Counted from the stretch's first letter, positions 3,062 to 38,286 are shown. The stretch: 64,000 nucleotides of DNA from Gammaproteobacteria bacterium (GCA_965215055.1 OZ244046.1:1199202-1263201); one strand, 5' to 3'. Numbers and translations are program-made. Notes: generated by a model from the letters alone, not told the origin.

Positions 3062-3330
3062 TTCATTCCTCCTCATTACTTGTTTAGCCAAGTTCCCCTG
3101 ACTTTAAGGCAACGCCGAACTTGAGTGTTTTTCAGATAGCTGAAGTGACATGATCCAAGGCGGCTTCACTATTTTAGACTAAGTGTTTGCTTTGCGGGTA
3201 TGGTTATTACTTATCATTTATCTCTCTGCAGAAGCAGTTGATTCAACTTCAGTTATTTTGATTAAAGAAACAACTATCTTGCATAATCAAGGATTTTAAC
3301 AACTTTTAGAGACAAATTCGCATATTTTAG

Positions 3331-4095
3331 CTACAAGAACTCTGCGATGACCGGCGTATGATCGGAGGGTCGCTTATTTTTGCGTGGTACTTTATCAATG
3401 CCGCTGAAACTACATCTCGCCTGCAGCGGTCTACTCGCCAAAATTAGGTCAATTCGCAATCCCATATTGCGTCGAAAGGCGGCCGCACGATAATCCCACC
3501 AACTAAAACTGTTTTCTTTCTGCTCAAATAACCGAAACGTATCAACGAAGCCCAAATTTAATATAGCTTTCAAGGCTTTACGCTCTTTGCTGCTACATAA
3601 AATTTTTTCCTCCCAGGCTATCGGATCATGCACATCTTGATCCTCAGGAGCAATGTTAAAATCTCCCAGCACGATGTATTTCGGGTATTTTTCAAGGTCT
3701 TTTTTAATGAAAGCGGTTACTTTCTTGAGCCAGTCCAGCTTGTATGTATATTTTTCGGACCCTACTTCCGAACCGTTCACGACATATAGGTTTAATATCC
3801 GCACGTCGGATACAGTAACCGCAAGAATTCGCCGCTGCGAGTCATCCAACCCCTCAATATTAACAAGTGTATCGCCGGCTGTTCGCTTTGATAGAGTCGC
3901 AACCCCGTTATAGGTGTTTTGCCCGCTGTACTCGCCATGATAGCCTCTCTGAGCAATTTCGGCTATCGGAAATTTTTCATCAACTACCTTGGTTTCTTGC
4001 AGCGCAAGCACATCTACGGGATTGGCATCAAGCCATTCCAAAACTTGCGGAAGGCGAACACGTAATGAATTTACATTCCATGAAGCTATTTTCAT
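3331..4095 (-). CDS. exodeoxyribonuclease III family protein (second ExoIII/Ape-type paralogue)
   Basis: 254 aa. MKIASWNVNSLRVR...LALQETK...GDFNIAP...SDHTPV are ExoIII/EEP-fold motifs. The protein is clearly diverged from the xthA copy at 172-960. Confidence 0.8.
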   Translation of the reverse strand: MKIASWNVNSLRVRLPQVLEWLDANPVDVLALQETKVVDEKFPIAEIAQRGYHGEYSGQNTYNGVATLSKRTAGDTLVNIEGLDDSQRRILAVTVSDVRILNLYVVNGSEVGSEKYTYKLDWLKKVTAFIKKDLEKYPKYIVLGDFNIAPEDQDVHDPIAWEEKILCSSKERKALKAILNLGFVDTFRLFEQKENSFSWWDYRAAAFRRNMGLRIDLILASRPLQARCSFSGIDKVPRKNKRPSDHTPVIAEFL

Positions 4096-26522: not shown

Positions 26523-28358
26523 ATGTGTGGAATTATTGGTGCTGTTGCAAATAGAGACGTGGCGCAAGTCTTGTTGGAAGGTCTGCATCGCCTGGAATAT
26601 CGAGGCTATGATTCCGCAGGCATGGTAGTGCTTGAGAACGGTGTGCTCAACCGCATTCGCAAAACGGGGAAGGTGCATGAATTAAGCAAGGCTCTGGACA
26701 AGTTTGCACTGGCGGGAGAACTGGGCATTGCCCATACTCGTTGGGCTACACATGGTGCACCGGCGGAAAATAATGCTCACCCGCATATTTGCAATAATCG
26801 GGTTGCCATTGTGCACAATGGCATTATCGAAAATTTTGAAACACTCAAAGCGCAACAAACTGCGCAAGGATTCAATTTTACCTCGGATACCGATACCGAA
26901 GTCATTGCCCACCAGATCGTCTTTTACCTGGACCAGGACAACGATTTTTTTACCGCCGTAAGTCGGGCAGCGGCAGACTTGAAAGGTGCTTACGCCCTGG
27001 GCGTGATCGATAAAAATAATCCTCAAAAATTGATTGCAGCACGCAATGGTAGCCCACTGGTTATCGGCAAAGGAGAAAACGAAAATTTTATCGCCTCCGA
27101 TGTACAGGCTTTAATAAGAGAGACACAAAAATTCATCTTTTTGGAAAACGGTGACATCGCGGAAATTACGAGCAACTCGATAAAAGTCGTCGATCAAACG
27201 AATGCACGTGTCAAGCGCAATGCAAAAACCAGCAAGCTATCCGCGAACGTTGGAGAAAAAGGCGATTACTCGCACTACATGCTTAAAGAGATTTATGAAC
27301 AGCCTCAGGCTATCGCTGATACGCTTGAAGGAAGGCTTGCCAACGGTCGGCTTGCACGGCAAATCCTCACGCCGCAGGCCGAGGAAACTTTACATCAAGC
27401 CAAGGCAATACAGATTGTTGCCTGCGGCACGAGCTATCATGCCGGGCTCGTCGCCAAGTTCTGGTTTGAAGAATTTGTGCGCCTTCCCTGTTCTGTAGAC
27501 GTTGCCAGTGAATTTCGTTATCGCAAGCACGTTATTCAACCGGACACGTTATTTATCGCTGTTTCCCAATCTGGTGAAACGGCAGACGTACTGGCCACGT
27601 TGCGACAGGCCAAACAAGAGGATTACATTGCTACGCTCGCTGTTTGCAACGTCCCGGAAAGCTCACTGGTGCGTGAATCGGATATAGTGTTGATGACTCA
27701 TGCCGGCCCCGAAATAGGAGTGGCTTCTACCAAAGCCTTTACCACACAACTGGTGGCGTTGCTGATGTTAGTGATTATCGCTAGCCGTCGTCACGAGACG
27801 CATGATGAACTTGAAAAAATGTTGGTCGAACAGCTTGTAACCTTGCCAACGCGAATTAATGAAGTGCTTGAACTCGATGCCAGAGTTAAAAAACTGGCCG
27901 AATACTATGGTGATAAAGAACATGCACTGTTCCTGGGTCGGGGTACTCATCATCCGGTGGCCAAAGAGGGCGCGCTGAAGCTGAAAGAGGTGTCCTACAT
28001 TCACGCCGAAGCTTACCCTGCCGGTGAATTAAAGCACGGCCCTATTGCCTTGATAGATACCAAGACACCTGTTGTTGCCGTGGCGCCCAATAACCAACTA
28101 TTAAAAAAACTGAAATCCAATATAGAAGAAGTACATGCACGTGGCGGTGTTCTACATGTATTTGCAGACGTCAATTCCAATCTTGCCGCCGCAGCCAAAA
28201 ATAACGTTACTGTTTTGGAAATTAATGCACCGGAAAATGCCGTCGCCCCGATCATTTTTAGCGTGCCTTTACAACTGCTTGCTTATCACGTCGCGGTTCT
28301 GAAAGGAGCCGACATTGATCAGCCCAGAAATTTAGCCAAATCTGTTACAGTGGAATAA
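26523..28358 (+). CDS. glmS: glutamine--fructose-6-phosphate aminotransferase GlmS
   Basis: 611 aa. N-terminal MCGIIGAV (Ntn Cys), two SIS domains, C-terminal ...SVTVE. Confidence 0.97.
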   Translation: MCGIIGAVANRDVAQVLLEGLHRLEYRGYDSAGMVVLENGVLNRIRKTGKVHELSKALDKFALAGELGIAHTRWATHGAPAENNAHPHICNNRVAIVHNGIIENFETLKAQQTAQGFNFTSDTDTEVIAHQIVFYLDQDNDFFTAVSRAAADLKGAYALGVIDKNNPQKLIAARNGSPLVIGKGENENFIASDVQALIRETQKFIFLENGDIAEITSNSIKVVDQTNARVKRNAKTSKLSANVGEKGDYSHYMLKEIYEQPQAIADTLEGRLANGRLARQILTPQAEETLHQAKAIQIVACGTSYHAGLVAKFWFEEFVRLPCSVDVASEFRYRKHVIQPDTLFIAVSQSGETADVLATLRQAKQEDYIATLAVCNVPESSLVRESDIVLMTHAGPEIGVASTKAFTTQLVALLMLVIIASRRHETHDELEKMLVEQLVTLPTRINEVLELDARVKKLAEYYGDKEHALFLGRGTHHPVAKEGALKLKEVSYIHAEAYPAGELKHGPIALIDTKTPVVAVAPNNQLLKKLKSNIEEVHARGGVLHVFADVNSNLAAAAKNNVTVLEINAPENAVAPIIFSVPLQLLAYHVAVLKGADIDQPRNLAKSVTVE

Positions 28359-28392
28359 TTTTGAATACCTATTAAACATACATAGACACTTC

Positions 28393-28418
28393 AACCGGCA
28401 GCTAGGTCATCACCGGTT
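28393..28418. terminator. possible bidirectional hairpin between convergent glmS and the DGQHR gene
   Basis: AACCGG (28393-28398) and CCGGTT (28413-28418) form a 6-bp stem around a 14-nt loop, followed by a pyrimidine-rich CTTTGCTACTTCTCT. Weak for an intrinsic terminator. Confidence 0.3.
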
Positions 28419-28450
28419 CTTTGCTACTTCTCTACCACAAAGTTTATGCT

Positions 28451-29584
28451 CTATATATCCAGTTCCGGTAATAACGATAGCAAATATTCTGCTAATCGGC
28501 GTTTTCCAGCAGCTGAACTGAAAGAGCCAGCGGCCCCTCTGTAACCTGTCCTCCAAAATTCTGCTCCCTGGACTGATACTCCCTCGCCATTCAACCCGTC
28601 TATATCATTCAAGGCTTTGTTTAGAAACGGTACATAGGACTCTGGTTCAAAGAGAGAGCCACCCTCAGAGCGGGCTAGGTCGAGCACAACTGGAAAAATT
28701 GAATGAAGCGCATCAACGCCAACTCCCTTTTGAATATTGTAATCTGATGGGAACTCAAAAGTTTTTGGCAGTACGCGACGAACGGCACGCCAATAGGCAT
28801 CTATTACCTGTGCCTGCCTTTCATGTGACCTGATATTTTGGAAAAGAGCAGTCTGTGTCAACAAGAGCTTGAGAGACCTAACGAACGATGCAGATGGTAC
28901 GGTCGTGTCACCCTTAGGCATGTTGGGCAATCGGATACGATCTTTCCAAGTACTCGAAGATTGCGACAAACGTTCGGTGAGAATTTGTGCATTGATTTCC
29001 CATGTCTTACCTCTCTCTTCAACCTCTTTCGCAAAAGAAGGATCGCTTGCAGCACGCGCTTTCATTAAATCTAAAGCAAGATCGGTTGGAACAGATTTTG
29101 CGTTCGAATTTACTACATGGAATTGCTTCATTTCACTACTTTCATCGGCACCGATCATGCACACGAAAGGAATTTTTATATTTTGAACATCTGCATCATA
29201 CTCATCTATCGCCTTTTGAAGAGCGAGAATCCGGTGTTGTCCATCAACCACCAGTAAGCAATGATCATTGGATGCCTTGTCTGGATTAAGGCAGAGGATA
29301 TAATTATCTGAACCATCCCTAGTGAGAACATCTTTCTCTTTTGCATTTCGCAAATTGAGCAGTACTGATGTTGGCAAATCCACAGTTTTCTTTGAGATTT
29401 CTCGTGCAAGTTGAGTGATTCGCGATTCTTTTGGATTACGTTGATACCCTGTTTCTTTGAGAACGTTTCGGTGGGGAACATGATGGTGTAATATCAATAC
29501 GCGAGCAGGCATTACACCAACAACGGTTATAATTTTATTTCGTAACGTTGGTCCCCGAACTACTCGCACTTTTGATGTACTCAT
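28451..29584 (-). CDS. DGQHR-domain protein (DndB-like, ParB/Srx-fold), solitary
   Basis: Contains the literal VVDGQHR motif together with upstream QR/NP-type motifs. ~377 aa from the ATG at 29584, which has an AAGGAAAAA RBS (the ORF track extends to 29623). By eye it is lower in GC than the flanking core genes. No dndCDE genes are nearby. Confidence 0.7.
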   Translation of the reverse strand: MSTSKVRVVRGPTLRNKIITVVGVMPARVLILHHHVPHRNVLKETGYQRNPKESRITQLAREISKKTVDLPTSVLLNLRNAKEKDVLTRDGSDNYILCLNPDKASNDHCLLVVDGQHRILALQKAIDEYDADVQNIKIPFVCMIGADESSEMKQFHVVNSNAKSVPTDLALDLMKARAASDPSFAKEVEERGKTWEINAQILTERLSQSSSTWKDRIRLPNMPKGDTTVPSASFVRSLKLLLTQTALFQNIRSHERQAQVIDAYWRAVRRVLPKTFEFPSDYNIQKGVGVDALHSIFPVVLDLARSEGGSLFEPESYVPFLNKALNDIDGLNGEGVSVQGAEFWRTGYRGAAGSFSSAAGKRRLAEYLLSLLPELDI

Positions 29585-29755
29585 AAATTTTTCCTTTGAA
29601 ATTAGGCTTAAAATCCTGCGCATTATACATAAAATAAAAAAGTGAGCAAGAATATAGAGCAGAAAAATTATGATTCCATCTTAGATCAAATTTAAAAATC
29701 TACTCTCCGGGTTTGGTTTATAATAGCGATAACACCTTCCGTCAGAGGGGTAATC

Positions 29756-30584: not shown

Positions 30585-30660
<76 letters not shown>

Positions 30661-31900: not shown

Positions 31901-31974
31901 TGGAGCGGGTGATGGGAATCGAACCCACGTTCTCAGCTTGGGAAGCTGATGTTCTACCATTGAACTACACCCGC
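31901..31974 (-). tRNA. tRNA-Gly(CCC)
   Basis: Minus-strand 74 nt GCGGGTGTAGTTCAATGGTAGAACATCAGCTTCCCAAGCTGAGAACGTGGGTTCGATTCCCATCACCCGCTCCA. Anticodon loop TTCCCAA. Confidence 0.85.
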
Positions 31975-32053: not shown

Positions 32054-32254
32054 ATGAAAATTACTGTAAATGGTGAGCAAACTGAGGTGGCGAACGGCAT
32101 GACCGCCTATCTGCTGCTTGAGGAACTCGGCCTGACGGAACAAAGGCTTGCGCTGGAGATCAACGAAGAAATAATACCGCGCAGTGTATTATCGCAACGT
32201 GTGCTACAAGCGGATGATCGTGTGGAAATCATTCATGCCGTCGGTGGAGGTTGA
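32054..32254 (+). CDS. thiS: sulfur carrier protein ThiS
   Basis: 66 aa ending in the diagnostic C-terminal GG (…IIHAVGGG). Ubiquitin-like size. Confidence 0.8.
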   Translation: MKITVNGEQTEVANGMTAYLLLEELGLTEQRLALEINEEIIPRSVLSQRVLQADDRVEIIHAVGGG

Positions 32255-32358
32255 GTTGGTTTTGAGGACAAAATAGGGGGAGTCATATTTCACGAAAGAT
32301 ATGAAAACGGTCGTGCAGTGTTGACTATATCAACACGATGTTGATTTAAGTAGTTGGA

Positions 32359-32459
32359 TTTTACTCTTTAGGGATAGTGTGGTCCGGCGGTTGCCAATAT
32401 AATTCTGCGGAAATGTTCAAGGTCTCTATCATGGCGGCATTGTCTGCTGTGACTTCAAC
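32359..32459. repeat. left copy of a ~100-bp imperfect direct repeat flanking the thiS/thiG insertion
   Basis: Aligns colinearly with 37288-37389 at roughly 80% identity. Shared blocks include TTTTACTCT, GGTTGCCAATA, ATTCTG and TTCAAGG. Weaker similarity extends ~30 bp further upstream (ATGTTG). Confidence 0.7.
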
Positions 32460-32555
32460 TTTTTTATGCTGCCCGCAGACGGCACCATTGACGATACTTC
32501 ATTCTGAGTGAAGCAGCCGAATTCGTAACAGTAGCAATCGGGCTGAGGTTATGTC

Positions 32556-33581
32556 ATGCTTTCTTTTAGTTGTACGACTCACCTGAAAAATTCTCTCAAC
32601 GCGAGAAATTACATGCGGGAACGCGCTTCAAGGAACCAGACGCTGTCATGCACAAGTGAGGATATCATGAGGCTGTCTCATGACATCATGCGGGTGGAAA
32701 CGACTGTTACCCAGAGAGATATCGAGGACCGAGTCATTGGTGGAGATATTTTCGATGTGGTGAGATATTTTCCCGCCTCATTTGTTGATCTCCTCATTTT
32801 AGACCCTCCGTATAATCTATCTAAGAATTTCAATGGGAATTTATTCAGAAAGAAAGAAAAACAAGAGTATGTTTTGTGGTTTGAGAGTGTTATTGAATTA
32901 CTAGACCCATTGATGAAGCCAACAGCGACAATATACGTATGCTCAGATTGGAAAACATCTACGCTTGTTTATCCGATATTGGAATCAAAATTTTCTGTGA
33001 GAAACAGAATTACATGGGAGCGAGAAAAAGGACGTGGTTCAAAGATAAACTGGAAGAATAATACGGAAGATGTCTGGTTTTGTACAAAGTCTGACCGCTA
33101 CTTTTTTGATGTTGATGCAGTAAAGCTAAAGAAGAAAGTTCTTGCACCCTATAGAATAAATGGAAAGCCGAAAGACTGGAGACAGGAGCAGAAGGGTAAT
33201 TATCGCTTGACACACCCATCCAATATTTGGACTGATTTGACGATCCCGTTCTGGTCGATGCCGGAAAACACCGATCACCCCACTCAAAAACCAGAGAAAT
33301 TGATTGCGAAACTTATTCTCGCGAGTTCGAAGAAAGGAGACTTTGTGTTTGATCCGTTCCTTGGTAGCGGCACGACTGCGGTTGTAGCAAAGAAATTGTC
33401 AAGGCGCTGGTGTGGGGTTGAGCTTAATTCTGAATACCTTTGCTGGGCACTAAAACGTGTCGTTGCCGTAACGAAAAACTCGACAATCCAGGGATATGAA
33501 AACGGTGTGTTTTGGGAGAGAAACTCACTCCCCAATCGAAATAAGGAAGCCTATAACTTTCAGGAAACCTTGTTCCCGTGA
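32556..33581 (+). CDS. type II DNA methyltransferase, beta-class (N6-adenine or N4-cytosine; DPPY motif)
   Basis: Motif IV ILDPPYNL lies N-terminal and motif I FDPFLGSGTTAVVA lies C-terminal, which is the beta-group order. AT-rich coding sequence. The true start may be one of several internal Met codons. Confidence 0.8.
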   Translation: MLSFSCTTHLKNSLNARNYMRERASRNQTLSCTSEDIMRLSHDIMRVETTVTQRDIEDRVIGGDIFDVVRYFPASFVDLLILDPPYNLSKNFNGNLFRKKEKQEYVLWFESVIELLDPLMKPTATIYVCSDWKTSTLVYPILESKFSVRNRITWEREKGRGSKINWKNNTEDVWFCTKSDRYFFDVDAVKLKKKVLAPYRINGKPKDWRQEQKGNYRLTHPSNIWTDLTIPFWSMPENTDHPTQKPEKLIAKLILASSKKGDFVFDPFLGSGTTAVVAKKLSRRWCGVELNSEYLCWALKRVVAVTKNSTIQGYENGVFWERNSLPNRNKEAYNFQETLFP

Positions 33582-34246
33582 GATCGGGTTTTTATTATAA
33601 AGGCTACTACAAAGCGATAGCTTCAAATATCAGAGAGTATATCAACTCGTTACAAGATTTCCTTTCGCCTGAAACGGCATGTAGTCCTAGAGCTGTTGGC
33701 GATGCACTTGAATCACTTGTGGCAGAAAAGTTTGATACCTTCCTTGGGGATTGGTGCAAAGAATACTCGAGAGATTTTGCCCGCCGCGCCATGGCTGACA
33801 TGGCATTTACTGATAAGGAAGGCATTTATTCCGTAATAGATGTCAAAACTCACAGAGAAGACACCAAATTCAACATGCCTAACCTTACTTCAGTAGAACG
33901 ATTGGCTCGGTTTTATGAGTCTGATGCCAATGTTTTCTCCCTTATCATAATTAAATATTCGATTGAAGGCACAAATATCGAAGTATCGGAGGTTTTATTT
34001 TCACCAATCGAATTTCTGGACTGGAGTTGCTTGACTGTAGGTGCGCTTGGCTGGGGCCAGATTCAGATCGCGAATTCCAATGATATCCGTATTATAGATA
34101 AATTCTCACGAAAGAAATGGATGTTACAGCTATGTGATGTGTTAATGGAATTTTATCCGAGAGAAATTGGCAAAATCCGGGACAGGATCGATCGCTTCAA
34201 CACGGTAAGGGAGTATTGGGAGTCAAAAGAAGACGTTTGGACTTGA
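33578..34246 (+). CDS. putative type II restriction endonuclease (PD-(D/E)XK-like)
   Basis: 222-aa ORF. Its GTG start overlaps the methyltransferase stop (GTGA). Candidate catalytic motif FTD...VIDVK. No family I can name with certainty. Assignment rests on linkage, size and motif. Confidence 0.5.
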   Translation: MRSGFYYKGYYKAIASNIREYINSLQDFLSPETACSPRAVGDALESLVAEKFDTFLGDWCKEYSRDFARRAMADMAFTDKEGIYSVIDVKTHREDTKFNMPNLTSVERLARFYESDANVFSLIIIKYSIEGTNIEVSEVLFSPIEFLDWSCLTVGALGWGQIQIANSNDIRIIDKFSRKKWMLQLCDVLMEFYPREIGKIRDRIDRFNTVREYWESKEDVWT

Positions 34247-34282
34247 TTAACGCAAATAATTGAGAGAGCCAACCTATAAACC

Positions 34283-35404
34283 ATGAACTCGGAACGCCAT
34301 ATGGATCGCCTGCCCCCTGAGTGGACGTGGTGGCAACGTGATCTCGTTATTTTAGGTGAGTTGCTGGTGTACGGTACTGGCATTGCTTTTGCAGCGATCT
34401 GCCTGAGCCTCCTATTTGAGAATCCACTACAATTAAAATGCGAATGTTGGTTGTATGTACTTGGAATCCTATTTCTAGTTGGGCTCTATATGGTTCGTCT
34501 CCTGCGGCATCCTTTTCGAGTACATGAAGAGAGGCTCGTTGATCGCACGGAAGTCGAAGCATTATTTAAGCAGGCATCTCCAGATGCCGGTAAAAATCTC
34601 CGTAAGCTTATTAAATGTCTCGAACACGAAGGTCCAAGCACATGGACGGAATATAGAATTCTACCCGTAGAGCAGGATGCATTGAAACGGCTTTCTGCCA
34701 AAGATTTGATTGCTAAAGCGCATGCGCGACTAGACGATCTCAAGGAATACGATGAAAAAAGAGGTGAGGAAGAGAAAGAGTACTTTAATAAGCGTGAAAA
34801 GCGATTACACAAGTCCATTAAGACGTTAAAAGAGGAGTTAAAAGAGACCAGTTCATCAGATACGGAGAAAGTTAAGCGTAGAAAAAAAGCAAAAAAAGCC
34901 TTGAGAGCAGACTTGGGAATGCTTCTTGAAACGCTCGCCGATTATGACAAGAACTGGGCAATTGGATCGGAAATATTGCGAGCATTATTGATAGTCATTT
35001 CATTCACTATACCCATTTTATTGGTTTTGGGAGTAGCTCCGGTTCTTATGCCACCAAGAGAAAGTCTTGGATTTGTCAATTGGGCACTTTTGGGGGTAGC
35101 GGGATCACTCACAGCAGTATTACGAAAGCTTTATTTGGGTAGTAAAGTGGAGGTTGGAGATACAGAAGGAAAAAACGAGTTATACCAAACTATCAAGGGT
35201 GCAGTTTTGGGTTTGGTCTCCGGGGTTCTAGTCTTTGCGATGCTCTCGGGTAATATTATATCGAAGGGAACCATAGTGCCTGATGTGGATAGCTGTGACT
35301 TAAAGCAGATTTATCTCTCTGTTTTCTGGGCTTTTATGGCTGGGTTCGCGTTTGAAAATTTCTTCGATAAAGTTCAACGAGAACAGATCGGAAAATACAA
35401 CTGA
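34283..35404 (+). CDS. hypothetical membrane protein with central coiled-coil/charged region
   Basis: 373 aa. Two N-terminal hydrophobic helices, then a ~130-aa highly charged K/E-rich segment (KEYDEKRGEEEKEYFNKREKRLHKSIKTLKEELKE...KVKRRKKAKKALRADL), then 3-4 C-terminal TM helices. No recognisable family. Confidence 0.5.
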   Translation: MNSERHMDRLPPEWTWWQRDLVILGELLVYGTGIAFAAICLSLLFENPLQLKCECWLYVLGILFLVGLYMVRLLRHPFRVHEERLVDRTEVEALFKQASPDAGKNLRKLIKCLEHEGPSTWTEYRILPVEQDALKRLSAKDLIAKAHARLDDLKEYDEKRGEEEKEYFNKREKRLHKSIKTLKEELKETSSSDTEKVKRRKKAKKALRADLGMLLETLADYDKNWAIGSEILRALLIVISFTIPILLVLGVAPVLMPPRESLGFVNWALLGVAGSLTAVLRKLYLGSKVEVGDTEGKNELYQTIKGAVLGLVSGVLVFAMLSGNIISKGTIVPDVDSCDLKQIYLSVFWAFMAGFAFENFFDKVQREQIGKYN

Positions 35405-35408
35405 TAAA

Positions 35409-35816
35409 ATGGTTGGAAAATCAGTCCATAAACATAGCCCGCATGCTAAAGTCTACGGCTTCGAGCTAATTATCGATTTGAAGAATTGTAGTCCATCTCT
35501 TTTCAATCGTAAATCTCTCGACAATTACTTTAGTCAACTGTGTGATCTTATTTCAATGAAGAAGGCAGAGGTGTATTTCTGGGACGATGTTGGAGTAGCA
35601 CCAGAGGAACAACAGACCGCCCCGCATACAAAGGGGACCTCGGCAGTCTGCTTTATTTTGACGAGTTCGATAGTAATCCATACGCTCGATGTTTTGAGAA
35701 CCGTGTATGTCAATATTTTTTCTTGTAAAGTGTTCGATCCTAATATTGCGGTGGAATTTACTAGAGATTGGTTCAGCGGTGAGGTCCAAAATTCCACGTT
35801 TATCGAACGGCATTAG
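35409..35816 (+). CDS. SpeH/AdoMetDC-fold (pyruvoyl-dependent decarboxylase-like) small protein
   Basis: ~135 aa from the ATG at 35409 (the ORF track starts at 35352 and overlaps the previous gene). Aligns with class-1 bacterial/archaeal S-adenosylmethionine decarboxylase proenzymes. HAKVYGFELIIDLKNC matches the GRHVIAELWDC-type N-terminus. The conserved His (IVIHTL) and Cys (IFSCKV) are present. The usual E-S-H processing site is replaced by T-S-S. Confidence 0.6.
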   Translation: MVGKSVHKHSPHAKVYGFELIIDLKNCSPSLFNRKSLDNYFSQLCDLISMKKAEVYFWDDVGVAPEEQQTAPHTKGTSAVCFILTSSIVIHTLDVLRTVYVNIFSCKVFDPNIAVEFTRDWFSGEVQNSTFIERH

Positions 35817-35830
35817 TGAGGGGGATCCTA

Positions 35831-37189
35831 ATGATAATTAGAGAAAAATCGATGACCATCCCAGTTCCTTCTGATCGTCACAATCTTATAGAACATGTCC
35901 GAGCGAGCGCCAATTTCCAACTGAAGGCAGATGAAATCCCAGTGCGCTATGCAGTGACGGAATCAAATGAGACTCAATATGTCTGTGAGATCGGTGTTGT
36001 TGCCGATGCCAATGCCGAGATAATCAGGAAAGTGCCAGATCTTTTCACATTCCGGGCTAGGCATTTGGCAACATCGGCCAGTTTTAATGCCGTGTTATTG
36101 GTGCCTACTGGAATCGGGTCGGATATTGGTGGTCACGCAGGAGATGCGACCGCGGTCGCCCATCTTGTTGCAGAGAGTTGCGACACGCTCGTCTTGCATC
36201 CGAACGTGGTGAACGCATCTGACATAAATGAGTTACCCAGTAACGCTTTATATGTAGAAGGGAGTATAGTTACACGGCTTCTGATGGGAACGATAGGCTT
36301 AGTTCCAGTTCGATCAAATCGGGTCTTAGTGATACTGGATGAACACATGGATAGACACTTCGTAGACATGGCTGTCAACTCGGTAAGCTCTGCCCGAGCT
36401 ACTTACGGTTTAGATTGCCCTGAGGTGGTCTGTCTAAATCCCTCTATTCGCATGAGCGCCGAATACTCAGAATCGGGATGTGCTGTGGGTCGAGTCGAGA
36501 ACATCGAGCATTGCCTTCAGGTTCTTAGTGACTTGAAGGAGCAATACGATGCGGCAGCGTTATCGTCCGTTATAAGGGTTCCTCATGAGTTTCATTTGGA
36601 CTATTTCCATCAGCAAGGAGAGATGGTTAATCCTTGGGGGGGTGTGGAAGCCATGCTGACACATACCTTGTCGTCTTTTCTAAACGTGCCGAGTGCACAT
36701 TCGCCCATGTTCGAGTCAAGGAAGATAGAAAATCTGGAGGCTGGTCGGGTTGAGCCTCGAATGGCGGCGGAAGCAGTATCGCTTACCTTTTTGCAGTGTA
36801 TCCTGAAGGGGTTACAAAAAAGCCCCAGGATAATCGAGGACGAGTCGCTATTTCATCGGTCCGATGTGTTTTCTGCTGAAGATGTGTCGTGTCTAATTGT
36901 TCCTGATGGCTGCCTCGGGTTACCCACGATGGCGGCCCTTGAGCAAGGCATTCACGTGATCGCCGTTCGTGAGAATCGAAACTTGATGAAAAACGATCTA
37001 GCGAGATTACCTTGGCGAAAGGGGCAGCTTATCGTAGTACAGAATTACCTGGAAGCCGTGGGTGTAATGAACGCGCTTAAGGCGGGAGTCACTTTGGAAT
37101 CTGTTCGCCGCCCAATTTTAGACACAAGGGTAACTTCGAAGTCGACCAGTTTTTTGAGTGACAGTGCCCGTACAGATAGTTGTTCATAG
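35831..37189 (+). CDS. hypothetical ~452-aa soluble protein
   Basis: ATG at 35831 with a GAGGGGG RBS (the ORF track starts at an overlapping GTG at 35816). Carries a glycine-rich block LLVPTGIGSDIGGHAGDATAVAHL. No family I can name. Confidence 0.5.
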   Translation: MIIREKSMTIPVPSDRHNLIEHVRASANFQLKADEIPVRYAVTESNETQYVCEIGVVADANAEIIRKVPDLFTFRARHLATSASFNAVLLVPTGIGSDIGGHAGDATAVAHLVAESCDTLVLHPNVVNASDINELPSNALYVEGSIVTRLLMGTIGLVPVRSNRVLVILDEHMDRHFVDMAVNSVSSARATYGLDCPEVVCLNPSIRMSAEYSESGCAVGRVENIEHCLQVLSDLKEQYDAAALSSVIRVPHEFHLDYFHQQGEMVNPWGGVEAMLTHTLSSFLNVPSAHSPMFESRKIENLEAGRVEPRMAAEAVSLTFLQCILKGLQKSPRIIEDESLFHRSDVFSAEDVSCLIVPDGCLGLPTMAALEQGIHVIAVRENRNLMKNDLARLPWRKGQLIVVQNYLEAVGVMNALKAGVTLESVRRPILDTRVTSKSTSFLSDSARTDSCS

Positions 37190-37287
37190 AAATTTCTGAC
37201 CAAAATTTGGCACTTGTTGAGTCCGAGCAGAAAGTGCTCCGAATACAACCCAAATCCAATGCCAAAATGTTGGTCACTGTGAGGGGC

Positions 37288-37389
37288 TTTTACTCTGTGA
37301 GAGTGGTGTGATCCGACGGTTGCCAATACGATTCTGAGGAGATATTCAAGGCCTCCAACACGGTGGTATCGCCCGCTTCAATTATTGAC
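37288..37389. repeat. right copy of the ~100-bp imperfect direct repeat, immediately upstream of thiG
   Basis: See the left copy at 32359-32459. Confidence 0.7.
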
Positions 37390-37458
37390 TTTGGCATTCG
37401 ACATGGAATCTCCCAGCCTTACAGGCAGTGTGTTGATTTCTGGTAAACTGTAGGGGTT

Positions 37459-38286
37459 ATGCCTCCTATACCAGTACCAGAGTTTTTGACCGATCAGGAT
37501 GCGCAGGCCCATGATGTTCTTACCATTGCCGGCAAGCACTATACTTCGCGTCTGTTGGTAGGAACTGGCAAATACAAGGGTTTACCGGAAACACGTGCGG
37601 CGATTGTAGCGAGTAATGCCTCGATCGTAACGGTGGCACTGCGCAGGACTAATATCGGGCAGGAAAAAGGGAAACCCAACCTGCTTGACTTTATCCCACC
37701 GTCCGAGTTTACGATTTTACCCAATACTGCCGGTTGTTATTCTGCCAAAGACGCGGTGCGTACCTGTCTTTTGGGGCGTGAGTTGCTGGACGGGCAGGCG
37801 CTGGTAAAGTTGGAAGTGCTTGGTGACGAGAAAACGTTGTATCCAAACATCGTGGAGACAATAGCCGCCACCAAGACGTTAATGAAAGAAGGCTTTGAAA
37901 TCATGGTGTATACCAATGATGATCCTGTTATCGCCAAGCAACTGGAGGAAATGGGATGTGTGGCCGTAATGCCTCTGGCGGCACCGATCGGTTCCGGTCT
38001 TGGGATTCGTAATCCGTACAATATTCTTACTATCGTTGAAAATGCCAAGGTGCCGGTTCTGGTTGACGCCGGTGTTGGCACGGCCTCCGATGCGTCGATA
38101 GCAATGGAATTGGGCTGTGACGGAGTGTTGATGAATACCGCTATTGCACAAGCAAAGAACCCCCTGATGATGGCCACTGCAATGAAAAATGCGGTCGTGG
38201 CGGGTCGACAGGCGTTTCTTGCTGGGCGCATGCCGAAACGCCGCTATGCGTCGGCTTCGTCGCCCGTTGAGCATACCTTTTATTAA
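37459..38286 (+). CDS. thiG: thiazole synthase ThiG
   Basis: 275-aa TIM-barrel ThiG (…RLLVGTGKY…). AGGGGT RBS upstream. Confidence 0.9.

Follow-up and report, generated by a model that had tools for sequence, protein, structure and literature searches.

A recurrent gene trio with a predicted pyruvoyl decarboxylase and a DUF3326 protein on a strain-variable island of a gammaproteobacterium

The trio and its products

The locus described here lies in a stretch of 64,000 nucleotides from a Gammaproteobacteria bacterium (GCA_965215055.1, OZ244046.1:1199202-1263201), referred to below as the window, and comprises three genes, termed g1, g2 and g3, at positions 34,283 to 37,189. A first-pass annotation, made from the sequence by a model, had described them as an uncharacterised module beside a restriction-modification (R-M) system and had suggested either a novel defence system or one that targets S-adenosylmethionine (SAM) or polyamines. 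Open reading frame (ORF) calling gave three intact ORFs on the same strand, the second with the fold of S-adenosylmethionine decarboxylase (AdoMetDC):

34283..35404, + strand: g1, membrane protein of 373 amino acids (aa), new family
35409..35816, + strand: g2, 135-aa predicted pyruvoyl-type decarboxylase, AdoMetDC fold, SpeDC-like branch (PF02675, 1.4e-13)
35831..37189, + strand: g3, 452-aa long-form DUF3326 enzyme (PF11805, 1.5e-94)

Direct reading of the sequence placed the stop codon of g1 at 35402-35404, the ATG of g2 at 35409 and its stop codon at 35814-35816, and the ATG of g3 at 35831 behind a GAGGGGG ribosome-binding site, leaving spacers of 4 bp between g1 and g2 and 14 bp between g2 and g3. 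The tight same-strand packing first read from the sequence was thus confirmed by both approaches. In full, the g2 ORF runs from 35352 to 35816, and the internal ATG at 35409 yields the 135-aa product; the g3 ORF ends at 37189 and starts at either 35816 or 35831, giving 457 or 452 aa, and the 452-aa product is identical to a database protein (P0001).

The g2 product matched the AdoMet_dc family (PF02675) over residues 20-134 with 51.5 bits against a gathering cut-off of 25 bits (E 1.4e-13), in agreement with the AdoMetDC fold assigned to the middle gene by the first-pass annotation. Residues S86, H91 and C106 were invariant in 47 of 47 members of the g2 family and, in an alignment built on the g2 family profile, fell opposite S63, H68 and C83 of the T. 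maritima enzyme (1vr7/1tlu), residues that are essential for self-processing and catalysis (PMC10407285). From its sequence, g2 is predicted to cleave itself between T85 and S86. Bona fide SpeD/SpeH (class 1b) enzymes have this fold and the Ser/His/Cys triad for self-processing in common with g2, and NCBI annotates relatives of g2 as S-adenosylmethionine decarboxylase. However, g2 scored 23.6 bits against the SAM-decarboxylase equivalog model TIGR03330, below its cut-off of 75.65 bits, and the canonical ES|H...HTWPE motif of true AdoMetDC is replaced in g2 by TS|S...HTLD.

Homologues of AdoMetDC are known that decarboxylate ornithine or arginine; horizontal transfer has distributed them, phages are among their carriers, and their genes are clustered with those of homospermidine synthases (PMC10407285). 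Comparison sequences were taken from Fig. S5 of that paper and aligned to the g2 family profile with hhalign. The kinetically validated ornithine decarboxylase (ODC; SpeDC) domain of a Ca. Omnitrophica fusion protein was matched with 97.3% probability (E 2.5e-11), whereas the genuine AdoMetDC domain of the same fusion protein reached 24.5% (E 8e-4). The g2 family and SpeDC share a Thr-Ser cleavage site and a Y-x-[DN]-[IV]-F-S-C motif. Among the positions diagnostic for SpeDC, which were mapped by our own reading of the alignment (Fig. 8 and Fig. S5 of PMC10407285), g2 has the Thr that precedes the Ser and also the Tyr, while the position after the His is Thr and not Phe. The g2 product is therefore predicted, at the level of sequence, to be a self-processing pyruvoyl decarboxylase of the AdoMetDC fold that is closest to the SpeDC branch.

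The third gene had been described as encoding a 450-aa protein of no recognisable family. The 452-aa ORF is real, but it does belong to a family, with 317.2 bits against PF11805 (DUF3326; gathering cut-off 25 bits, E 1.5e-94). Residues 86-425 of g3 cover positions 1-336 of the 337 in the profile, and the N-terminal 85 residues lie outside the model. An AlphaFold2 model (mean predicted local distance difference test score 85, predicted template modelling score 0.86) consists of an N-terminal beta-alpha-beta-beta domain of ~85 aa followed by the DUF3326 body with Rossmann-like domains. An invariant Gly-rich loop, VPTGIGxxIGGHAGDA, is placed between a strand and a helix with low confidence; in the model this could reflect an empty ligand site, and the loop could hold a nucleotide cofactor. 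A structural search with g3 returned generic matches and no close relative of solved structure. Its relatives number in the thousands at 50-79% identity in very different phyla, mostly in marine, sponge-associated and sediment metagenome-assembled genomes (MAGs). Pfam lists members of the family in cyanobacteria and plants too. A 611-aa protein (P0015) was considered as a possible g2-g3 fusion and rejected, as it carries an internal tandem duplication of ~160 g3 residues that is probably an assembly artefact.

The g1 product is predicted to begin with a transmembrane (TM) hairpin, to continue with a helical domain of ~150 aa on the cytoplasmic side and to end with four further TM helices, six TM helices in total. 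No family was found for it in Pfam or NCBIfam, its PADLOC matches were at chance level (Cas3b 0.0016, LeoC 0.0083) and its structural model gave no informative match. A relationship to DUF350/YjfL was examined and rejected (hhalign probability 1.4%). The family is small: 22 word-indexed relatives were found, and an exhaustive profile search of 1.84 billion representatives gave 215 clusters. By comparison, g2 and DUF3326 (g3) each form more than 6,000 clusters, drawn at 90% identity in the case of DUF3326.

A decarboxylase beside DUF3326, and its changing partners

The genomic surroundings of DUF3326 genes were compared by fetching 80 genome loci, calling ORFs and clustering the neighbours; counts are given over 81 loci, and individual loci are cited by number (L001 and so on). 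A decarboxylase was scored as paired when it lay within 2.5 kb of the DUF3326 gene on the same strand. On this basis 78 of the 81 bacterial loci carried a decarboxylase, and two of the three misses were at contig ends. In 53 loci the partner was an AdoMetDC-like, g2-like gene directly upstream of DUF3326, with a median gap of 4 bp. In the remaining 25 the g2 slot was filled by an nspC-like decarboxylase of the alanine-racemase fold, dependent on pyridoxal 5'-phosphate (PLP), that matched TIGR01047 with 1e-88 and 297 bits, below the equivalog cut-off of 409. A genuine SpeD/SpeH would have the aminopropyltransferase SpeE as its obligatory partner; the genes beside the trio and the neighbour clusters that recur over the 81 loci were inspected, and no spermidine-synthase-like gene was seen in them.

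The pairing extends to viruses. In IMG/VR, 57 of 65 viral contigs with DUF3326 (L086-L150) had an adjacent decarboxylase, AdoMetDC-like in 50 cases and of the phosphatidylserine decarboxylase (PSD) family in seven. The viral DUF3326 proteins are mostly a short form of ~330 aa without the N-terminal 85 residues, and the seven contigs with the PSD-family pyruvoyl enzyme encode a form of ~430 aa. These contigs are taken as genuine phages because their flanks carry terminase, portal and replication genes (DNA polymerase, primase, DnaB), together with dCMP deaminase and thymidylate kinase. Within them the pair stands by itself as two genes in unrelated surroundings; no kinase, hydroxymethylase or transferase gene is conserved next to it in the IMG/VR contigs, and such a self-contained pair fits a reaction on ordinary host metabolites. 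Viral copies were seen in IMG/VR contigs only, g3 having no match among PLSDB plasmids or the deposited phage genomes of INPHARED.

Three unrelated decarboxylase folds thus alternate beside DUF3326, and it is therefore the reaction, not SAM, that appears to be required. This alternation argues strongly for a coupling of DUF3326 chemistry to a decarboxylation, and it speaks against a role specific to SAM.

Upstream of the pair the partners vary. The g1 gene lay directly upstream of a decarboxylase and DUF3326 in 16-17 of the 81 loci and in three of three more distant homologues; all 19-20 g1 homologues examined adjoin such a pair, whichever type of decarboxylase (g2 or nspC-like) is present. 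Since every g1 examined sits before a decarboxylase and DUF3326, the trio is a real, recurrent unit, and g1 is a small new membrane-protein family seen only in this position. A conserved trio across genomes, which the first-pass annotation had left to a neighbourhood comparison, is therefore borne out. Two complete g1-g2-g3 trios were observed on one MAG chromosome (L015 and L017, both OZ245330.1, at ~0.30 and ~0.67 Mb).

In 26 of the 81 loci, from at least 12 phyla, the genes for the Septu proteins PtuA (an ATPase) and PtuB (an HNH nuclease) were found directly upstream of the pair and on the same strand. The assignments were clear (PADLOC 2.9e-57 for PtuA and 3.1e-52 for PtuB, the latter also above the TIGR02646 cut-off), and the median gap between PtuB and the decarboxylase was 2 bp. 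One locus (L018) has g1, g2, g3, PtuA and PtuB all together. The window itself contains neither PtuA nor PtuB, by PADLOC and by tblastn near g3, and g1 occupies their position; at about half of the loci PtuAB and g1 are both lacking. On the DUF3326 tree the loci with PtuAB, g1, GspS-like and other partners are interspersed, and the decarboxylase type is shuffled as well, which indicates repeated swapping of modules.

Other partners include a GspS-like (glutathionylspermidine-synthase-like) ligase, DUF350 and DUF1190, encoded ahead of the pair in 6-7 loci, and DUF4178 with DUF350, encoded after it in three. All four are partners in described polyamine operons (PMC11237479), and hss-gss clusters are also known (PMC9992855). 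Defence-type neighbours were seen at L001 and L151 (type III R-M, DUF1156 with an SNF2-helicase) and, as several R-M and MADS components, in the flanks of some trio loci, while other loci have housekeeping flanks (for example, L153 and L154).

Three further neighbours recurred. A homologue of MfnB, (5-formylfuran-3-yl)methyl phosphate synthase (PF04476, 1e-37), lies just upstream of PtuA in seven PtuAB loci, on the same strand in L008, L016, L024 and L055 and on the opposite strand in L064, L069 and L076. An upstream set of a ~470-aa tetratricopeptide repeat protein and a ~310-aa methyltransferase resembling protein arginine methyltransferases was present in L045, L049, L070 and L039. A conserved protein of ~480 aa without a Pfam or NCBIfam family (cluster C11) follows the nspC-like gene and DUF3326 in L021, L038, L047, L065, L068 and L071, mostly from Dehalococcoidia/Chloroflexota.

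The island between thiS and thiG

The trio lies immediately downstream of a methyltransferase gene and a putative nuclease gene, and the five genes share an insertion between thiS and thiG. The remaining features of the locus are as follows:

32054..32254, + strand: thiS, left flank of the insertion site (TIGR01683, 1.8e-20); adjoins thiG in the empty-site strain
32261..37399, no strand: strain-variable insertion of 5,139 bp carrying the R-M pair and the trio; site empty in L085, same island in L082-L084
32356..32448, + strand: left copy of an imperfect direct repeat of 93 nt (copies 75% identical and spaced by 4,929 bp, by repeat search)
32556..33581, + strand: type II N6/N4 DNA methyltransferase (PF01555, 8.6e-45; PADLOC MTase_II, 4e-60)
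33578..34246, + strand: putative cognate restriction endonuclease, 222 aa (by position; weak REase_II match, E 0.0015)
37285..37377, + strand: right copy of the 93-nt repeat, paired with the left copy by repeat search
37459..38286, + strand: thiG, right flank of the insertion site (the identical gene in L082-L085 matches PF05690 ThiG)

In a strain contig with 98-99% nucleotide identity (L085), thiS is followed by thiG after 171 bp. This contig aligns to the window up to 32260 and again from 37400, and the 105 bp between these points are replaced in the window by 5,139 bp. As thiS stands directly before thiG in a near-identical strain, the segment 32261-37399 is a 5.1-kb insertion, and it is an acquired, strain-variable island; the empty site directly bears out the acquired segment that had been postulated. 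Three contigs of a 98.8%-identical strain (L082-L084), from the same population as L085, have the island occupied in the same arrangement. The GC content is 0.42-0.43 over 32-36 kb, as against 0.48-0.50 in the flanks. No thi genes were found near the other DUF3326 loci among the 81, and the thi context is peculiar to this locus.

The methyltransferase of the R-M pair is clear, and its 3' end overlaps the 222-aa ORF by 4 bp. This ORF, which has no relatives in Pfam, NCBIfam, PDB or plasmids, is a putative nuclease by its position, its weak REase_II match and a D...ID-V-K motif. That the trio rides with an R-M pair holds at this locus, where both are strain-variable, but the pair was not found travelling with the trio elsewhere in the 81-locus comparison. 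Promoter and terminator scans of the five genes gave nothing above chance and no operon boundary was called; the methyltransferase, the 222-aa ORF, g1, g2 and g3 may therefore form one transcription unit.

The 93-nt repeats bracket the methyltransferase through g3 inside the island; there is none at the empty site, and half of the left copy is replaced in L083. They may be the remnant of a recombination or of a cassette boundary. An RNA element or riboswitch was considered for the island and the repeats and rejected: the only Rfam matches were two tRNAs, both outside the island, and the repeat had no Rfam match and folded no better than shuffled sequences. In L083 an extra gene for a 321-aa protein of no known family (3115-4080, - strand) lies between thiS and the methyltransferase, at a site that corresponds to window 32259-32417 and spans only 159 bp there. 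The gap between thiS and thiG has therefore undergone more than one remodelling and is a hot spot.

Strain variation was also observed nearby. An orphan gene with a DGQHR domain (28451-29623, - strand; TIGR03187, 6e-29; DpdB/DndB-like) lies directly downstream of glmS, 4.6 kb from the trio, with no further dnd or dpd genes close to it. The window carries it within 28358-29702, where L083 and L085 have a 386-bp stretch with an ORF of 102-106 aa. The thiO gene is flanked by tRNA-Thr(CGT) (30585-30660, - strand) and tRNA-Gly(CCC) (31901-31974, - strand), and the latter lies ~290 bp upstream of the left edge of the island, with thiS in between.

Proposed function and rival explanations

One interpretation of these data, to which we give a probability of about 0.5, is that g2 and g3 are a two-step pair for the synthesis of a polyamine-type amine and that g1 is a dedicated membrane partner. 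The pair is read in this way because the association of a decarboxylase with DUF3326 is near-obligatory and because the DUF3326 protein PavB needs a decarboxylase partner. Formation of N-(5-aminopentyl)pentane-1,5-diamine and pavettamine depends on both PavB, the sole studied member of the family, and PavA, a Rieske protein with an alanine-racemase-fold decarboxylase domain, and the first steps of the pathway have been reconstituted in E. coli (bioRxiv 10.64898/2026.06.12.731819). By analogy, g2 would remove the alpha-carboxyl group of a basic amino acid, most likely ornithine, or of an amino-acid adduct, and g3 would build a longer amine from the diamine so formed by condensation, in the manner of homospermidine synthase. 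In an alternative order, g3 would first build a carboxylated adduct that g2 would then decarboxylate. The g1 protein would move or sense the amine, or would be the component on which the amine acts. The substrate, the product, the order of steps, any cofactor of g3 and the role of g1 are all inferred in this manner. The first-pass annotation had offered a small-metabolite pathway as its alternative, and for the chemistry this proved the better reading. It had also allowed that the 452-aa protein might turn out to be a polyamine-type enzyme of a conserved housekeeping operon; the first part of this is partly supported, but the trio is a mobile accessory cassette and not a fixed housekeeping operon.

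Several known systems share parts of this logic. As in the pavettamine operons of Paraburkholderia, Caballeronia and B. pseudomallei, whose product is a symmetrical triamine, a DUF3326 gene and a decarboxylase gene are adjacent in one operon, with g2 lying 14 bp upstream of g3, and decarboxylases of the PavA class are those found at 25 of the 81 loci. In the window, however, the decarboxylase is a 135-aa pyruvoyl enzyme and not a domain of a 1,119-aa Rieske fusion, the PavC hydroxylase is absent and a dedicated membrane protein is attached; g3 is likened to PavB by shared family, and has in addition the N-terminal domain beyond the Pfam model. Clusters of SpeDC with homospermidine synthase (HSS) or SpeY (PMC10407285) likewise place a small class-1b AdoMetDC homologue that does not act on SAM beside an amine-condensing enzyme, though DUF3326 is unrelated in sequence to HSS or deoxyhypusine synthase (DHS). 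Joining followed by decarboxylation is the logic of the carboxynorspermidine dehydrogenase/decarboxylase pathway (CANSDH/CANSDC, the latter being NspC), to which the nspC-like proteins in the g2 slot are similar; here, no CANSDH homologue is present, the nspC-like proteins fall below their equivalog cut-off and the decarboxylase of the window is pyruvoyl-dependent, not PLP-dependent. Finally, in 9-10 loci the pair is flanked by accessory genes known from PspA-linked polyamine operons (PMC11237479) and from hss-gss clusters (PMC9992855), and it occupies the place taken in the described operons by AdoMetDC/spermidine-synthase-like or HSS genes. Note, however, that GspS-like, DUF350, DUF1190 and DUF4178 genes are all missing from the window.

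A number of points weigh against the proposal of an amine-synthesis pair with a membrane partner. No homology backs the role assigned to g1, and the substrate and product are argued from analogy. The g2 protein is 28% identical to the validated ODC domain and has a family-specific insertion of 12 residues (FWDD...PEEQQTxPHTK), and because of this divergence the substrate is put only as a basic amino acid or adduct; moreover, the Gln that we read as diagnostic for SpeDC belongs to the g2 family consensus but is Cys in the g2 of the window. The reaction of PavB itself is left undefined in the pavettamine study, and PavB may be a short form of DUF3326, unlike the long-form g3. Lastly, the tight operon link to PtuAB and the island context are unexplained by plain metabolite synthesis.

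These last observations suit, tentatively, a different explanation, in which the locus is an anti-phage system proper. The pair would make or consume a small amine as a signal or guard, the upstream gene would be an interchangeable effector, g1 here and the PtuA ATPase with the PtuB HNH nuclease elsewhere, and the short-form phage copies would be counter-measures or the source of the module. It is possible, on the same tentative footing, that the pair is the common engine of an unrecognised family of metabolite-based anti-phage systems, in which the amine restrains or triggers the effector and the phage short forms override it. The co-operonic PtuAB genes, the interspersion of PtuAB- and g1-linked loci on the tree, the locus that has both, the strain-variable island shared with an R-M pair and close to the DGQHR gene, and the R-M, MADS, DUF1156 and SNF2-helicase neighbours of related loci all point in this direction, and in type I-A retrons PtuAB is already known as an effector under the control of a separate module, being coupled there to reverse transcriptase and multicopy single-stranded DNA. 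Yet no PADLOC model (PADLOC-DB v2.0) matches g1, g2 or g3, as had been anticipated by the earlier remark that no described defence system was known to have this composition; about half of the loci lack both candidate effectors, and several have metabolic or envelope partners or housekeeping flanks; the thousands of g2 and g3 clusters beside 215 of g1 suggest a general function of the pair that is independent of the effector; and unrelated cargo also clusters with defence genes on islands. The idea of a novel defence system is thus strengthened by the Septu linkage and left without a match for the trio itself. That such a system would sense or deplete SAM, the cofactor of the adjacent methyltransferase, and act through the membrane protein is highly improbable. 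The membership of g2 in the AdoMet_dc family, the NCBI names of its relatives and the neighbouring methyltransferase had favoured it, but the TIGR03330 score and altered motifs, the fit of the g2 profile to the ODC branch, the substitution of g2 by nspC-like and PSD-like enzymes, which by family are not SAM decarboxylases, and the separation of R-M pair and trio elsewhere all run counter to the claim, and it is not upheld.

Other chemistry has to be weighed as well. It is unlikely, though conceivable, that DUF3326 links the side chain of an amino acid to DNA, to a nucleotide or to a membrane lipid and that the decarboxylase then trims the amino acid to an amine, after the models of phage thymidine hypermodification or the phosphatidylserine-to-phosphatidylethanolamine route; with PtuAB this would resemble a modification-restriction pair. 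In the substrates of AdoMetDC, PSD and carboxynorspermidine decarboxylase alike, the amino-acid part that is acted upon is linked through its side chain to a larger group, which suits such a scheme. The PSD-family enzymes that replace g2 beside the ~430-aa DUF3326 in seven viral contigs suit it as well, as do the genes for replication and nucleotide metabolism that surround the phage copies (DNA polymerase, dCMP deaminase, thymidylate kinase) and the nature of the partners, either membrane proteins (g1, DUF350) or a nuclease (PtuB). The phage pair stands alone, however, without conserved neighbours of the kinase, hydroxymethylase or transferase kind; the products of PavA and PavB are free amines; and Pfam detected no DNA-binding domain in g2 or g3, both soluble proteins, whose structural matches are generic. 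An ordinary housekeeping cassette, in which the pair would supply putrescine or homospermidine, g1 would be an unrelated transporter and the R-M pair coincidental, is improbable. The proposed amine chemistry, the size of the g2 and g3 families and the housekeeping flanks at some loci agree with it, but a strain of 98-99% identity lacks the cassette, the thi context does not recur, partners and decarboxylase types are shuffled across the tree, one genome has two copies of the trio (L015, L017), and g1 occurs only with this pair. The presence/absence polymorphism, the R-M neighbour, the Septu link and the phage copies argue against a housekeeping supply and leave room for a role in defence or conflict. 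Phage-host conflict or envelope stress is the likeliest setting for the proposed amine-synthesis trio, ahead of the housekeeping supply of polyamines, and a defence role is plausible.

Pyruvoyl decarboxylases and polyamine-type synthesis are already-known kinds. The near-obligatory pairing of a decarboxylase with DUF3326, the long form of DUF3326, the g1 family and the Septu linkage are undescribed in the literature searched, in which we found no link of Septu/PtuAB to a decarboxylase, to polyamines or to DUF3326, and no account of the pair being joined to Septu genes in many phyla or carried by uncultivated phages. The co-operonic PtuAB genes mirror the retron arrangement, with the difference that the locus in the window has g1 in their place.

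DUF3326 is a large family without an assigned reaction, and the comparative pattern suggests a job for it, as the partner of a decarboxylation in the making of amines. If this is true, it would add a new, non-homologous amine route to those of spermidine synthase, CANSDH/CANSDC and the homospermidine synthases, and would extend the recent finding of repurposed AdoMetDC homologues. Should the amine control PtuAB or g1, polyamine chemistry would be linked to phage defence; and should the metabolite-based anti-phage reading hold, the pair would represent a new class of small-molecule immune signalling and a Septu 'type' with an enzymatic regulator. If there is no such control, the pair would still constitute a new and widespread polyamine pathway and an auxiliary metabolic module of phages.

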